Positions 6,172 through 39,531 of a stretch of 64,000 nt of DNA are shown here, in pieces. The position numbers were made by a program, and so were the translations under genes. Origin of the DNA: a candidate division WOR-3 bacterium (GTDB taxonomy: Bacteria; Hydrothermota; Tepidihabitantia; Tepidihabitantales; Tepidihabitantaceae); contig CBFGJV010000008.1 of assembly GCA_965649205.1 (NCBI GenBank), forward strand, positions 1-64,000. Direction: 5' to 3'. The notes beneath the pieces are model-generated. The model was not told the DNA's origin. It did no database searches and saw only the letters and a program-made list of their open reading frames with translations. Numbering within the stretch: the first letter of the stretch is position 1; each line of letters opens with the position of its first letter.

Positions 6172-6440
6172 ATACTGACCACCCGCTTCTCTGTTGGAGG
6201 AAAGTTCTCTCTACTCCTCCCAGACAGACTACCACCGGCCAGGCACCCCCTCCCTCTGCCTGCCTGTGTACCCCCCGCACCAACTCCGCCACTAACGCGG
6301 TTTCCGCAACTCTGGCCCCCTTCTCACTCCCCGTACAAATTTGCACCCGATACAACACTCGCCATCCGATACCCCTCAACCTGCATAACCCCGCCCCGCA
6401 CACCGCCCCAGACCGTTGGGGGAGTCACTCCCCCACCTAG
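6172..6440. repeat. Degenerate C-rich intergenic element with partial 12-nt periodicity, ending in palindrome TGGGGGAGT-C-ACTCCCCCA
   Basis: Shares CCCTCTGCCTGCC-N4-TACCCC (6252-6274) with 34685-34707; palindrome at 6417-6435. Confidence 0.5.
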
Positions 6441-6700
6441 TGAACCAAAAAACGACTCCGCAGACTTGTTAGCATTCAACACGAACTACTTACAAATTAC
6501 CGCATATACGCATATAACTATTTACAAATGTATATATTAACCCTGTTTTATTGGGTTGGGTGGTGGTAATAGCTTGTAAATTCAGGTGTTATATAGTACG
6601 TGTGCCCTGCGAAGGCGTCATCTTGAGAATGGTTTCGGGAATCGACCCATGCTCAATGAAGAACATAGCTTGGCATCTGGGCTTCCTAAAGATTATTAGA

Positions 6701-30747: not shown

Positions 30748-31239
30748 TTATAACTCCTCGCGCCTCATCTTATTCTCATCATCAGTCGTGTCAAGCGGCG
30801 TCTGTGCTACTGCGACCGGTCCAAATCGATCGTCCTCTGGGGTCTGTGTGAAATGATTCTCCAAGTAGGCAAGAATCTGCTCTGGGTCTTGAGGCAAAAG
30901 CAAATGTACCCCCCGGAAGTTGTCCAAAAAAGTTCTGCGAGAGAATGGAGAAAGTACCACCCCTCCCGTAGTCCGAAAGTAACGTCTAAACCTGCTCCAC
31001 GGATATTTATAGCTAAACAATCGCTTGTCCACTGTCACCCCGTCTTTGTCAAACGTAAACGTAATCGGAAGAAAGTATGTATGCAAGGCTGCAAACAGAA
31101 CTACAATTGCCACTACGCCCAGAAGAACTCCGAAACGCCAAAAAGAAAAGCTTATTACCAACAATAGAATTGCGACCGCAAACCAGGTTTTGCCCGGCGT
31201 CTCCTTCGCCCGGTGTACTGTCCAACTGATCTTTTCCAT
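30748..31239 (-). CDS. Hypothetical membrane protein
   Basis: Two TMs, LSPF...LDNFRG motif; coupled to the pyr cluster. Confidence 0.7.
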   Translation of the reverse strand: MEKISWTVHRAKETPGKTWFAVAILLLVISFSFWRFGVLLGVVAIVVLFAALHTYFLPITFTFDKDGVTVDKRLFSYKYPWSRFRRYFRTTGGVVLSPFSRRTFLDNFRGVHLLLPQDPEQILAYLENHFTQTPEDDRFGPVAVAQTPLDTTDDENKMRREEL

Positions 31240-31347
31240 AATCGATTACAGAATCCTTGTCGATTATACTGAAACCGCAGCTATGTGCTACTTACTTGAC
31301 TTTCGTTCTCTCGGTGGCAATCTGAATTTACTAGCCAGGAGTAACAT

Positions 31348-33147
31348 ATGACTAATCTTCCCTCTGTTCTGAAAGGACCTTTACCCAAGATTGGTATCAG
31401 GCCGACGATAGACGGGCGACGCGGTGTACGCGAGTCGCTGGAAAAACAGGTGAAAGCAATGGCCCATGCGGCTGCGCGCTTCATATCTTCAAAACTGAGG
31501 TATCCTGACGGAAGACGTGTAAAGGTAGTAATCGCCGACGAATGTATCGGTGGGGCGGCAGAGGCCGCGGCCTGTGCCGAAAAATTCGCCCGCGAAGGCG
31601 TGGGCGTCTCCCTTACAGTCACACCCTGCTGGTGCTACGGAACAGAAACCATGGACACAGACCCGTTCCTGCCCAAAGCCATCTGGGGCTTTAACGGCAC
31701 AGAAAGACCAGGGGCGGTATATCTTGCCGCGGTTCTCGCTGGCCACAATCAGCTGGGCTTACCGGCGTTCGGCATCTACGGTCGCGAAGTACAAGACAAA
31801 GATGACTCGTCAATTCCCCACGACGTGCAGGAAAAGCTACTCCGGTTCTGTCGAGCCGGACTGTCAGTCGCGCTTGCTCGCCAAAAGAGCTATCTGTCGA
31901 TTGGCAATGTATCCATGGGCATAGCCGGTTCGGCGGTTAACCATAATTTTTTCTCTGACTACCTAGGCATGAGAGTAGTATGTGTGGATATGAGCGAGCT
32001 GGTTCGGCGGTTGGAAGAGGGAATCTACGACCTGCTTGAGTTCAAACGTGCCTATGCTTGGGTCAAGAAATATTGTCGCGAAGGCGCGGACCCTAACCCA
32101 GAACCTATGCGCCGCAGCCGCGAAGCCAAAAACCGGGAATGGCAGACCGTAATAAAAATGACCATGATGGTGAGAGACCTAATGGTGGGTAACCCTCGTC
32201 TGGCTGAGTTGGGTTTTTCAGAAGAAGCCTTGGGCCATAATGCCATACTCGCCGGTTTTCAGGGGCAGCGCCAGTGGACAGACCACTTTCCCAACGGGGA
32301 TTTTCTCGAGGCCATCCTGAACTCTTCTTTCGACTGGAATGGCACCCGTGCCCCCTATCTGGTGGCTACCGAAAACGACAGCTTGAATGGTGTGGCCATG
32401 CTCTTTGGCTGGCTTCTTACCGGAACGGCCCAGATATTCGCCGATGTACGTACCTACTGGAGTCCGGAAGCTGTAAAACGGGTCACCGGGTATACGCTTA
32501 CGGGCCCGGCTTCTTCTGGAATCATACACCTCATCAACTCCGGTGCCGCCTGTCTTGATGGCACAGGAGAACAATCTCGGGACAACGCTCCGGCCATAAA
32601 ACCATTCTTGGAAATCACGCAGGAAGAAGTCGAAAAATGCCTTGCCGCCACTACCTGGCCCCCGGCGCTGTACGAATACTTCCGGGGCGGTGGTTTTTCC
32701 TCCTGCTATGTCTCCCGAGGCGGGATGCCGTTGACAATGAGTCGGGTAAGCCTGGTGAAAGGACTAGGCCCGGTGCTGCAGATTGCTGAAGGATACTCGT
32801 TGGAGCTCCCGGAACACGTACACCGCACATTGGTTGAACGTACGAACGAAACCTGGCCTACCACTTGGTTTGTTCCCAGACTTACCAATAGCGGTCCTTT
32901 CCGCAGTACTTACGAAGTAATGAAGGCCTGGAGTGCCAACCATGCCGCGGTATCCTACGGTCATATCGGTGCCGACCTTGTTACTTTAGCCTCCTTGCTC
33001 CGCATCCCAGTTGCCCTGCACAACGTTCCCGAGGAAAAACTGTTTCGCCCCTCCGCCTGGGCACTATTTGGTACTGCCGACCAAGAAGGTGCTGATTTCC
33101 GTGCCTGCGCCAACTTCGGTCCGCTCTACGGCAAGGGTTCTTTGTGA
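31348..33147 (+). CDS. fucI: L-fucose isomerase
   Basis: [42 protein letters not shown]. Confidence 0.97.
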
Positions 33148-34503
33148 ATTTAATCTTCATCTGCCTCGATTCGTTCCGTCAAGACCACGTTGGTTTCTAC
33201 CACCAAGGCCGGTCCGCGTTCATAGACGTACCTGCCTGTCGCACGCCAAACCTCGACACCTTTGCCCGTGAGTGTATCGTCTTTGACCGATTACACCCCT
33301 GCGGCCTGCCCAGTTTTCCGGTCCGTACCGAACTTCTGACAGGGCAGTTCACCCTGCCTTTTCGACCCTGGCAGGCGTTGAATTCCAGCGACCTCACGCT
33401 GCCGGAAATCCTGCGTGCAGAAGGATATGTTTCTGCCCTGATTACCGACCTGTATCACTACTTCGTACCGGGCATGAACCTGCATCGGGGATTCGACGTT
33501 TACCGCTGGATACGCGGACAGGAGTTTGATGCTTACCAGTCACACAATACATGTCGCAACCTCAGAGATTACACAAACGACAACTATCCGCCGCACTGGC
33601 AAAACCTCGTTGGCCGCTTCTTGGCCAACACCGACGATATAAAGGACGAACGACAGTGGTTCTGCGCACGGTTGGTTGATCAGGCGTGCGACTGGCTCAA
33701 GAAAAATCGCTCGGACAAAAGAAAGAAATTTCTTTGGCTCGACTCGCTTGATCCCCATGAACCTTGGGATCCGCCTCCCCGATTTGACGTCTATACTGAC
33801 CCTGCCTACAAAGGTCCTCGACTGGTCTTGCCCTTGGGCGGAGCTGCCAAGGACTGGGCTTCTCCCGAAGAAATACGCCATATCCGGGGTCTGTATGCAG
33901 GCGAAACCGCCTATGTTGATCACTACGTAGGAGAACTACTTGCCTGCCTGAAAGAACTGGGGTACTACGAAGATAGCGTAATCGTCATCCTTTCCGACCA
34001 TGGCCATCCCTTGGCCGACCATGGCAAGTTCCTCAAGGGTACAGACCGTCTATATTCAGAATTACTCAACGTGCTTTTCCTCGTACACTTCCCCGGCTGT
34101 CAGCCGCGCCTCACCCACGCCCTAGCCCAAATGCCAGACATACTACCTACCTTGCTGGAGTTGCTAGGTTTTGCCGCCGACACTCAAACAATGGCTGGCC
34201 GTTCCCTCGTGCCCGTCCTGCGCGGTGAGAAAGATACTCATCGCGATGCCGTCATCATCGGCTACTACGAAGGTTTCGACCGGATGCATCCGAGACGAAA
34301 ACTGGAGCTATATACGCCGCCCGAACACAGAACCAGACGAATTGTATAACCTGGCCGAAGACCCACGAGAGACTCGAAGCCTGATTGACGAATACCCAGA
34401 CCAAGCTCGCCGCCTAGCCGCAAAATTCGGCAATGCGTGGTACCGCCATCCGCCGCAAGCCATAAAGGGCGTCCAAGGCCGCTACGAGCTGGCTGGTTCC
34501 TGA
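33144..34503 (+). CDS. Sulfatase-like hydrolase with a +1 frameshift near 34284
   Basis: DSFRQD, SFPVR, LTG, DPHEPW, SDHG; C-terminus [19 protein letters not shown] continues in ORF 34171-34503. Confidence 0.8.
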
Positions 34504-34559
34504 CCACCACTGTTTTCGCCGAAATGCTGACAGCTTGGCGTAAATTGCACGAAGTGCGG

Positions 34560-34859
34560 TTCCCCCAACTGCTCACTGACCTGCCCAGCCGGCAATCTGG
34601 AGACCAGCCCGGTCAGCCGCCCGCCAAGCGACCCACCAAACGACTCACCTAGCCGCCCCTCCCGCAATTCTCCACTCCGTTCTCCCCTCTGCCTGCCCAA
34701 CTACCCCTTGGCCAGCCCTCTGCCTAGCCCACCAGACAACCGGCTCACTCGTCCGGTCACCGGCTCGGCAAACTATTCACCTGGCAACCTTCCTCACCGC
34801 CCGGTATTCTGCCCCCGGAACAACCCGCCAGGCCACCTACCCAGCAGCCCCCCCCAGCG
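34560..34859. repeat. Degenerate 12-nt tandem array, about 24 units, consensus roughly YYNNNNNNNCNR
   Basis: Units from 34572: ctcactgacctg/cccagccggcaa/tctggagaccag/cccggtcagccg/cccgccaagcga/cccaccaaacga/ctcacctagccg... Confidence 0.8.
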
Positions 34860-34959
34860 ACCCCCATACGAAAAAGCTTCACTTACAGCACCGCCCGTGT
34901 GCCACCTGTGCGCGGCGCTAGCGGCCTTACCTTGCGAAAGCTATACGGTGGGCAGGAAG

Positions 34960-37396: not shown

Positions 37397-37599
37397 GTGA
37401 CCATAATCTAGCAGAAAACTACAAACGGTCAAATTGGACGGTCAGGCCGGTAGCAAACTTCAAAGTAGACGTTGCCGGATTGCGTCCCCGGTTCTTAAAT
37501 ATCCTGCCCCCTTCTCACGTTCAAACTCCATCAACCTCAAACTCGCACAGAACGAAATCTTCCAGCCTCACTAGCAGCTTACACCAAAACACAAAGAAG

Positions 37600-37880
37600 T
37601 TATTTTTCATGCTACCCCAAATTGTAGTACCTAATAGGTATTTATTACGAGCATTAATTATAAATAGATATATAGGTCCGCTCCTGAGTAGATAACAACA
37701 ATTTTATTTGATTTTATTAGATTGTTGCTGTTGTTGTGTATGGGGATTGGCGTGCAGACTTGCAACGCTATGATTTTGTTGAAGTTGCCAACGGGGTTTT
37801 TCACAGTGGCTCAGGTGGGTAGATGTGGAAACTTAAAGGGTTAACTGAAGTTCACGCAGTAGACGACAGGTTATGCACCA
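37600..37880. other. AT-rich region with DnaA-box-like sites downstream of dnaA (candidate unwinding part of oriC)
   Basis: AT-rich 37620-37720; TTTTTCACA 37797-37805; one-mismatch boxes at 37824-37832 and 37871-37879. Confidence 0.55.
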
Positions 37881-39250
37881 GTTATCCCAGACATTATTCT
37901 TTCTATTTTGCTGGCAACAGTTGGATCAGTTGTACAGAGAGATTGTATTTTGTCGAGGGCGTGCATAACTGTGGTATGGTCTCTGCCCCCGAACATAGTT
38001 CCTATCTCTTTTAGTGAAAGTCCAAGTTTGTGGCGTAGTGCAAACATCGCCGCCTGCCGGGCAAGGGCCAACTGTTTGGTACGACTTGGTCCCCGAATTG
38101 CGGCGGCGGGGACGCCAAACACTTCCGCTGTCTTAGTGATAACCGCATCGGCACTGGGTGTTTGTTCTGGAGGTAGCAGGTCCTTCAAGGCTTTTTCCGC
38201 GAGCGCGAGCGAGACGGGCTCTCCGGCAAGCGACGACATGGCAGATATGCGGACAAGGCAACCTTCTAGTTCCCTGACATTGGATTTAACTCGGCTGGCT
38301 ACATAGTGGGCTACCTCAGGTGGCAAAGACAACCCTTCCAAGGCAGCCTTATGGTGCAGTATGGCTATACGTGTTTCTAGGTCAGGCGGTTGGATGTCGA
38401 CAACCAAACCAGACCCGAGTCTAGAAGTCAGCCTTTCTTCCAATGTAGGAATTTCTTTAGGCGGGCGGTCGCTTGTGAATACAACCTGGCTGCCAGCGTT
38501 GTGTAGGTGGTTGAAAATATGAAAGATTTCCTCCTGCAGCCTCTCTTTTCCCACCAGGTAGTGTACATCGTCAAGTAGTAACAATCCCAGACACCGGTAT
38601 TTGTTTTTAAACTCTAACCTTGTATCTTTTTCTATGGCCTGAATGAACTCCAAGAACAGCGTCTCCGCGGCCACATAGAGAATTTTAGCTTTGTCACCAC
38701 GCTCGCTCAACAAGTGGTTTCCTATAGCATGAAGCAGGTGGGTTTTACCCAAGCCGGGTCCGCCGTAGATGAAAAGCGGGTTATAAGCCACGCCCGGTCT
38801 CTCTGCCACGCTGCGAGCTGCGGCACAGGCTAGCCGGGACGACTCCCCTACTACGAAATTTGCGAAAGTGTAGTTTGGTTTCAATCTATACGCGCTTCTT
38901 GCAGAATAAGAAGGCGAGTCAGTAATTTTCCAAGGCGAGCGTGTCCTGTGCTCATGTAACCGAGCGATGTCGTCCTGTCCCCTGGGCCGGAAAGAGACAG
39001 ATAATGGTCGCGCACATACAGCAGCTAGCGCTGTTTTTATGTTTGCCGCATAACGCTGAGAGAGCCATTCCACGAAAAAGGAAGTTGGAACCTCTACTTC
39101 AATAACATCACCTTTTAGCTCGCGACCTTTGGTGGGCGACAACCAAGTATCAAATGCCTCACCGCTCACACAGGAACGCAGATACTCGAGCACTCTGTTC
39201 CAGATAGCTCCAGCATCCGCCTGAGAAACTACAGGATTATCAGTTGCCAT
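37871..39250 (-). CDS. dnaA: Chromosomal replication initiator DnaA
   Basis: YTFANFVVG, YNPLFIYGGPGLGKTHL, NVRELEG, FGGRDHTTVMHA. Confidence 0.98.
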   Translation of the reverse strand: MATDNPVVSQADAGAIWNRVLEYLRSCVSGEAFDTWLSPTKGRELKGDVIEVEVPTSFFVEWLSQRYAANIKTALAAVCARPLSVSFRPRGQDDIARLHEHRTRSPWKITDSPSYSARSAYRLKPNYTFANFVVGESSRLACAAARSVAERPGVAYNPLFIYGGPGLGKTHLLHAIGNHLLSERGDKAKILYVAAETLFLEFIQAIEKDTRLEFKNKYRCLGLLLLDDVHYLVGKERLQEEIFHIFNHLHNAGSQVVFTSDRPPKEIPTLEERLTSRLGSGLVVDIQPPDLETRIAILHHKAALEGLSLPPEVAHYVASRVKSNVRELEGCLVRISAMSSLAGEPVSLALAEKALKDLLPPEQTPSADAVITKTAEVFGVPAAAIRGPSRTKQLALARQAAMFALRHKLGLSLKEIGTMFGGRDHTTVMHALDKIQSLCTTDPTVASKIERIMSGITGA

Positions 39251-39285
39251 CTACGCCCCCACATCTTCATACAGATATCACCCGG

Positions 39286-39427
39286 TTATCCACATAATTA
39301 TCCACATAGCATCCTGCTTGTAAATCTTTATAAGAGTTAATGTTACACTAGTAGAGATAGAAATAATCCACAATTGTCTATTCTGTTGCTGCCTTGCGCA
39401 TAATATGTCGGCAAAGAAAAGTGTCAA
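39286..39427. promoter_or_regulatory. DnaA boxes and dnaA promoter (oriC-associated)
   Basis: TTATCCACA at 39286-39294 and 39298-39306, TAATCCACA 39364-39372; TTGACA-N16-TATTAT at 39427-39400 (-). Confidence 0.8.
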
Positions 39428-39531
39428 GAAAAAGAATGTCGGCGCTGACAATTTTCTCACAGGAAACAGATTTGTTGCGTCGGTATCGGACCTGGTTATG
39501 CCGGCTTGGTAAGTAGAAGGTTCGAACTACA

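Follow-up and report, generated by a model that had tools for sequence, protein, structure and literature searches.

Phased weak sites lying beside the gene of the protein that binds them are known from H-NS sites, parC and iterons, and a filament can spread from such sites. Gene transfer agents consist of domesticated chromosomal virus coat genes without replication genes, and the known agents use head-tail capsids. For the coats of the realm Adnaviria, the accessible text of PMC5517147, PMC6105669 and PMC7189273 gives 12 bp of A-form DNA per coat dimer and 9.3-17.1 dimers per turn, and the realm is described as archaea-specific in the accessible parts of PMC10848233 and PMC13700489. Here, we analyzed a stretch of 64,000 nucleotides from a candidate division WOR-3 bacterium (hereafter the window), which contains a phased array with a period of 12 bp. 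This array is real, and it is an operon-less copy of an array that precedes an operon of capsid-like genes. The array and its neighbours are the following.

30748..31239, minus strand: conserved gene, the ancestral neighbour of the tRNA (57-64% identity in L125, L127, L128 and L129)
31240..34958, no strand: lineage-specific 3.7-kb segment at the tRNA 3' end, with the fucose isomerase gene, the sulfatase gene and the array
31348..33147, plus strand: L-fucose isomerase gene, which belongs to the acquired segment
33144..34503, plus strand: sulfatase gene; its frame is shifted by one base near 34282, which is seen only in this assembly
34560..34871, plus strand: phased array of 26 degenerate 12-bp units (312 bp), consensus about CYCNCYNANCNR, with a period-4 sub-pattern; the operon-less copy
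34848..34849, plus strand: one extra C in a C run, which shifts the last unit; left out in the contigs of X1, X2 and X4 (3/4 runs)
34872..34886, plus strand: conserved 15-bp tail AAAAGCTTCACTTAC, common to 7 copies in the genome
34959..35033, minus strand: tRNA (anticodon CAT); 72 bp separate its 3' end from the tail

When cut from 34572 into 23 consecutive units, the array has pyrimidines at positions 1-2 and a purine at position 12 in 23/23 units and a C at position 10 in 21/23, and all 23 units differ from one another, exactly as counted in a preliminary description that had been made from the letters of the window. The period-12 column information of these units is 197.7 compared to 35 ± 9 in dinucleotide shuffles, 0/300 of which reach 197.7, and the observed information is likewise reached by 0/1000 codon shuffles of the array per frame. 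A strong period-4 sub-harmonic is also present (z 25.6), which the preliminary description had missed together with the link to capsid-like genes, and there is no period-3 signal (z -0.1). Period 12 persists above period 4, with 0/5000 tetramer shuffles equalling the window array; the signal on which that description had staked its claim thus stands above both dinucleotide and tetramer shuffles. CRISPR-type alternation of repeat and spacer is absent, no Rfam family lies over the array and, all units being different, we agree that it is not a CRISPR. It is not a simple VNTR either: TRF detects just 2.8 copies in it, and VNTR/STRR features (near-identical units, slippage-variable copy number) are absent, five copies of the array aligning without gaps, unit by unit. 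At 34848-34849, the phase is kept in the other four aligned copies, and the extra C probably reflects a mistake in assembly or recent slippage. In a strain about 91% identical, the array is in place and gap-free over 34560-34806, the six gap letters of that alignment all falling outside this interval.

The sulfatase ORF as assembled ends at 34349, and the shifted frame reaches a stop at 34503. Since the base at 34282 is missing in the contigs of all four runs (related strain), the sulfatase is probably intact in nature, and its frameshift probably stems from an error in the assembly or from slippage of recent date. With the queries used, the sulfatase found no match in 5/5 relatives and the L-fucose isomerase none in 40/40 relatives. 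Near-identical copies of the same tRNA with differing 3' neighbours were observed at L127 and L130 (G001). In 4/5 relatives, the tRNA and the conserved gene at 30748-31239 are neighbours, the gene coming 8-250 bp after the tRNA. No att-like repeat was found at the 3.7-kb segment, which does not class as a tRNA-targeted integrative element, and the tRNA site looks like an insertion hotspot. Further along, the window holds at 37480-39500 a dnaA-like gene (37871-39250, called from its sequence) and a TTATCCACA repeat at 39286-39308. Together with a GC-skew flip near 40 kb, they place a replication origin some 3 kb away from the array.

To explain the kept phase, the preliminary description had offered a lattice of protein-binding sites, a structured RNA or a non-canonically translated repeat peptide, of which the lattice is the best option and the other two found no support. 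The plus frame is indeed open from 34531 (to 35022) with its earliest start codon at 34708, and the frame reading as SPxx repeats is open in 5/9 copies. However, the same frame has stops in 4/9 copies, and the check for codon-like substitution between copies gave a synonymous fraction of 0.30 compared to 0.31 ± 0.03 in neutral simulation, as obtained on five copy pairs that are not independent. The one frame with a mild synonymous excess (0.41 vs 0.31 ± 0.04) holds stops in 8/9 copies, the window offers no start codon for a repeat protein, no Pfam match was obtained and the period-3 signal is absent, so that a tetrapeptide-repeat protein, which we rejected as a candidate, can practically be dismissed.

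As for an RNA, the fold z of the array is -1.08 and, with no Rfam family, a structured RNA finds no support. The array could act as RNA in two other ways, either as a Rho-loading site formed by its C-rich strand or as a fixed/variable guide as in VIPR arrays, where, according to the accessible text of 10.64898/2026.10.21.760802, fixed and variable bases alternate beside a filament-forming protein. The traits of a Rho site, a C-rich, G-poor sense RNA behind a gene, are present in the window copy, in which the strand rich in C is the sense one downstream of the sulfatase stop, but not in several sisters or relatives: the arrays of relatives are often not C-rich, and the upstream gene faces away in several copies. 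A guide would be at odds with the lack of any motif-like fixed position in the array and with the lack of a target for the collapsed variable letters (best E 0.21, with one collapsing scheme). Neither idea explains why arrays are absent from sister orders, and we hold a role as RNA to be very unlikely.

A consensus-free scan of the 2.15-Mb genome, as suggested in the preliminary description, found 18 period-12 loci at p<1e-7 compared to 0-3 for nine other period settings. A reversed-genome control for the array scan was unusable because the pattern is near-symmetric and reversed arrays still score. Behind the tail, intact copies carry a promoter-like motif and then the capsid-like operon, and the copies with the tail make up the following truncation series.

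Tail only: the window copy, C6 and C5:49770
Tail and promoter-like motif: C5:1054
Tail, promoter-like motif and broken gene start: C1, C20 and the contig end of C10
Array with an intact operon of three small genes behind it: C43, one case

Five tail-bearing copies align gap-free, unit by unit, at 73-92% identity. The window copy is 73-75% identical to the four others, unit by unit and without gaps, including 75% to the array ahead of the intact operon on C43, and its homology stops about 8 bp past the tail. In two more array classes, the anchor is a palindrome (17 sites) or a G/C-rich end motif (19 sites), and many of these sites carry weaker arrays. Among motif-anchored arrays, 23/30 follow the strand with negative GC skew (one double count removed), a weak tally given a threshold with about 10% false positives and both orientations in G005.

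Several other observations were made on these arrays. The palindrome is of the AATACTCATGAGTATT type and lies ahead of many weaker arrays (17 sites, G000), one of them ahead of an HTH gene; in G005, an array lies ahead of an HTH gene and fused capsid-like genes. In the window, the end motif of the third class occupies 6418-6434 and a promoter-like match lies at 6489; the interval 6418-6510 shows a weak period-12 signal with no capsid-like gene behind. The tail-bearing array at C5:1054-1377 (G000) lies about 400 bp upstream of rho, its G-rich strand being the rho sense strand. The sole strong period-7 window of the genome is at C13:5881-6120 (G000).

Compared with each of four homologous copies, the window copy differs by substitutions that preserve the pattern much more than randomly placed changes do (0/2000 each). 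When the same base changes were placed randomly, the pattern score, from a profile trained on four non-alignable copies, fell from about 117 to 57-68, whereas the real copies hold 113-126. The preliminary description had read the kept phase as a mark of selection, and the sparing of pattern positions argues in the same direction. A family that once mattered ahead of the operon, and of which the window copy would be an idle, decaying relic, could account for the three sister copies that precede truncated or stop-containing first-gene starts, and for a window copy with neither a promoter-like motif nor a gene behind it. We consider this improbable: the window copy keeps the full unit number and scores 116.7, to be compared with its sisters, the 91% relative has no gap in the array, and stray copies are common in another genome as well (G005, 9 long matches). 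The changes that keep the lattice could be older than the loss of the operon, so that the window copy may now be idle.

The C43 genes behind the array are members of a family that counts 18 segments in the genome, and their homologues are named WOR-3 bacterium, in agreement with the preliminary description, which had pointed to similar tracts in WOR-3-like genomes. Searches of Pfam, PHROGs, the ESM Atlas and PDB sequences with the divergent C43 proteins gave nothing useful, and the third gene of the operon closely matches the canonical class of the family. Pfam Sulf_coat_C is matched by 4/6 full-length paralogues with E values of 2.7e-4 to 0.016, below the curated cut-off, and the best five PDB sequence matches are all Adnaviria coats (E 0.02-0.46). 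The ESM Atlas match of the canonical paralogue is an unnamed cluster of low recognition. For the structure model of a paralogue (pLDDT 90), the top 8 Foldseek matches are Adnaviria coats (TM up to 0.73, E 0.005-0.9) and so are the top 6 VIA matches (Z 13.0-9.2, helical bundles being able to reach Z 9-13 by chance), the coats ranked first by the two programs being those of SIRV2, SSRV1, AFV1 and SFV1. Six Adnaviria coats also rank first for the array-proximal paralogue (Z 9.8-7.5), of which only the C-terminal bundle matches; the long N-terminal helix is missing from this model, and its grip may therefore differ. Finally, the family profile matched SIRV2 ORF134 at E 3e-10 among the SIRV2 ORFs, and both AFV1 coats were matched as well. 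Single scores are moderate and all methods rank the same family first; judged by sequence and structure model, the linked proteins carry the fold of the SIRV2 major capsid protein.

Two capsid-like domains lie in one open frame at C3:2-688 and C42:5396-6157 (G000), where they match the first and third operon genes, which suggests a heterodimer. P0110, P0129, P0140 and P0156 are longer proteins of 300-490 residues with a capsid-like domain at the start.

The link between array and operon holds across the order. A period-12 array lies ≤1 kb upstream in 23/24 capsid-like operons from 21 genomes (10 of one genus), compared to 17/388 random 1-kb windows of the same order. These 24 are the distinct operon starts with ≥400 bp upstream among 31 loci, 30 of which were drawn from stronger matches and not as a random sample; one duplicate (L030 = L078) was dropped, as were six loci with <400 bp upstream, of which three have an array, two have none and one has 20 bp. 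At other periods, the operon upstream regions gave 0/24 for 9, 11, 13 and 15 and 2/24 for 10 and 14, and periods 8 and 16 also score because of the shared period-4 component. Unit consensus words vary between loci, and the fitted period is 11.95-12.05 in 21 arrays, which shows its exactness and not its choice since these arrays were picked as period-12. Closed arrays count 15-27 units (n=22). The unit code that they share is weak, purine-then-pyrimidine (profile correlation 0.35 vs 0.28 permuted), and palindromy of the unit holds in few arrays, the units being mostly non-palindromic. Canonical paralogues have an adjacent array in 2/27 upstream and 4/29 downstream flanks.

Capsid-like genes were found in 41/41 genomes of the order, with 2 to 34 matches per genome, and, in a sample of the phylum, in 26/26 genomes of the order compared to 0/125 elsewhere. 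Similarly, 12 arrays were found in 388 kb of unselected DNA of the order compared to none in 708 kb taken from eight genomes of the same class that lack the proteins, a co-occurrence that amounts to a single clade contrast and not to many.

We consider it reasonably probable that the array is a loading lattice for capsid-like dimers, and a host coat for protection or silencing is favoured over export. By analogy with the dimers of SIRV2, AFV1, SFV1 and PFV2, the capsid-like proteins would dimerize and grip 12 bp. A slight preference for sequence, recurring in phase along 15-27 units, would give a stable nucleus; this length corresponds to roughly one or two turns of a helix of the SIRV2 type, which has 14.7 dimers per turn. 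Dimers would seat one per unit, as the analogy implies, and the filament would then spread, the divergent paralogues beside the array nucleating and the canonical paralogue extending an A-form filament over the neighbouring DNA. The resulting host nucleoprotein coat could protect or silence selected stretches, among them its own promoter and acquired genes, with the window copy as a secondary site that would be supplied in trans. Several points count against a lattice. To our knowledge, viral coats of the Adnaviria type wrap entire genomes with no obvious preference for sequence, and the best period-12 windows of SIRV2 and AFV1 (p 8e-5 and 5e-6) do not amount to a strong array. Most canonical paralogues have no array beside them, the units share just a weak code, and CC/GG steps in the arrays show no excess over composition.

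A full module starts with the array and the capsid-like operon and ends with a canonical capsid-like gene; defence genes often lie in between, and often also a sigma factor after them. A distal capsid-like gene on the same strand lies behind the operon in 10/16 fetched stretches, three others reaching the contig edge, and restriction-modification, toxin-antitoxin or helicase genes lie between the module ends in 7/10. A sigma-70 gene precedes the distal capsid-like gene in 4 modules (Pfam), and likewise on C12 of the window genome, and the promoter-like motif recurs ahead of the operon, the sigma gene and the canonical genes. G001 and G000 share a site, with kinase, array and operon at one end and sigma factor, capsid-like gene and thiolase at the other, the C43-C12 join in G000 being deduced from the cas gene order. 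The contents of this site are toxin-antitoxin and methylase genes in G001 and apparently type I-E CRISPR-Cas in G000; the array length is kept (27-28 units), and just the last 50 bp align with the window copy.

A repeat of the 3' part of a histidine kinase gene was also observed at C20:14079-14165 and, at the contig end, 40360-40446 (G000), and C43 ends with the same kinase flank and array. The repeated flank indicates a direct duplication around about 26 kb, as left by a single-crossover insertion.

With the same lattice and the same proteins, the array could instead be the packaging start of a virus-derived filamentous particle that exports the DNA behind it between cells, stray arrays such as the window copy being landed or trimmed copies. 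The bracketing of defence-type genes by a distal capsid-like gene, the different cargo at the site shared by G001 and G000, the truncation series, the variable number of capsid-like matches per genome and the closing of an acquired segment by the window copy all speak for such a particle. On the other hand, no integrase, virus replication or tail-fibre gene was found with Pfam among the 51 ORFs listed inside ten modules, where remote homologues of virus genes could escape the searches, and no recombinase match was found in 20 fetched loci; the two PF00589 genes of the genome sit on C18 and C19. No relative was found in viral contigs or phage records, the SIRV2 and AFV1 ORFs gave only one match in the genome, which is unlinked, and none of 36 CRISPR spacers (C43) has a convincing target in the genome or the fetched loci. 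In the window, moreover, the acquired genes lie before the array and not behind it, and defence genes collect at any tolerated insertion site. We thus regard export as possible but rather unlikely. In its fullest form, which is an equally doubtful proposal, a bacterial order would have domesticated the A-form coat of Adnaviria, with lattice-started and paralogue-nucleated filaments and a coated stretch, often a defence island, exported as a particle. This would make it the first bacterial gene transfer agent derived from Adnaviria, and the window array a landed address tag.

No description of such an array/capsid-like system was found in the literature search, which covered open-access main texts. 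A term search of the accessible text of the WOR-3 papers PMC12285271 and PMC12542636 found no mention of capsid, virus or repeat, and the accessible text of two genome-language-model preprints (10.64898/2026.10.21.760802 and another) has no mention of WOR-3, capsid or a 12-bp period, the filter of the former, as described there, being one that may drop periods divisible by 3. What our analysis newly adds is that stray arrays are copies of the operon array, that their lattice is kept, that the link with the operon is order-wide and that full modules bracket defence genes.

According to existing descriptions, Adnaviria coats occur only in archaeal viruses and bind DNA regardless of sequence. An order that keeps 2-34 capsid-like genes per genome together with lattices at the footprint period points to a new bacterial chromatin or DNA-export system, and bears on the origin of the Adnaviria coat and on the nucleation of such filaments. 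With linked proteins of about 120 residues and an array fragment of 312 bp, the claim is directly testable.

Compared with known systems, the array resembles VIPR/TIGR, as far as the accessible text of 10.64898/2026.10.21.760802 describes them, in its short period, its more and less variable positions and the small protein gene that adjoins it, but those have periods of 5 and 18 and fixed motifs while the array has a period of 12.0, no invariant position and a protein of another fold. Its units are far more degenerate than nucleoid-protein, iteron or centromere sites, its period of 12 is not a multiple of the B-DNA turn and its partner is capsid-like. The system differs from known gene transfer agents by its presumed helical coat, its many dispersed modules and its phased arrays, and from Adnaviria by linked genes that are chromosomal, multi-copy and bacterial, without other virus genes. 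The context is chromosomal in 41/41 genomes of one bacterial order, and neither the 51 module ORFs nor the viral contigs showed virus genes of this kind, although remote homologues could be missed. Because the host is bacterial and no virus genome was seen, the system would work like an Adnaviria nucleocapsid without being a member of the realm. Phased DNA arrays are paired with the linked proteins here and are absent in SIRV2 and AFV1. Nevertheless, the linked proteins share fold and detectable sequence homology with the coats of SIRV2 (ORF134, 3j9x), SSRV1 (6wq0), AFV1 (ORF132/ORF140, 3fbl/3fbz/5w7g), SFV1 (6d5f) and PFV2 (6v7b), both sets have paired or fused paralogues, and the period of the array equals the 12-bp footprint of one Adnaviria coat dimer.
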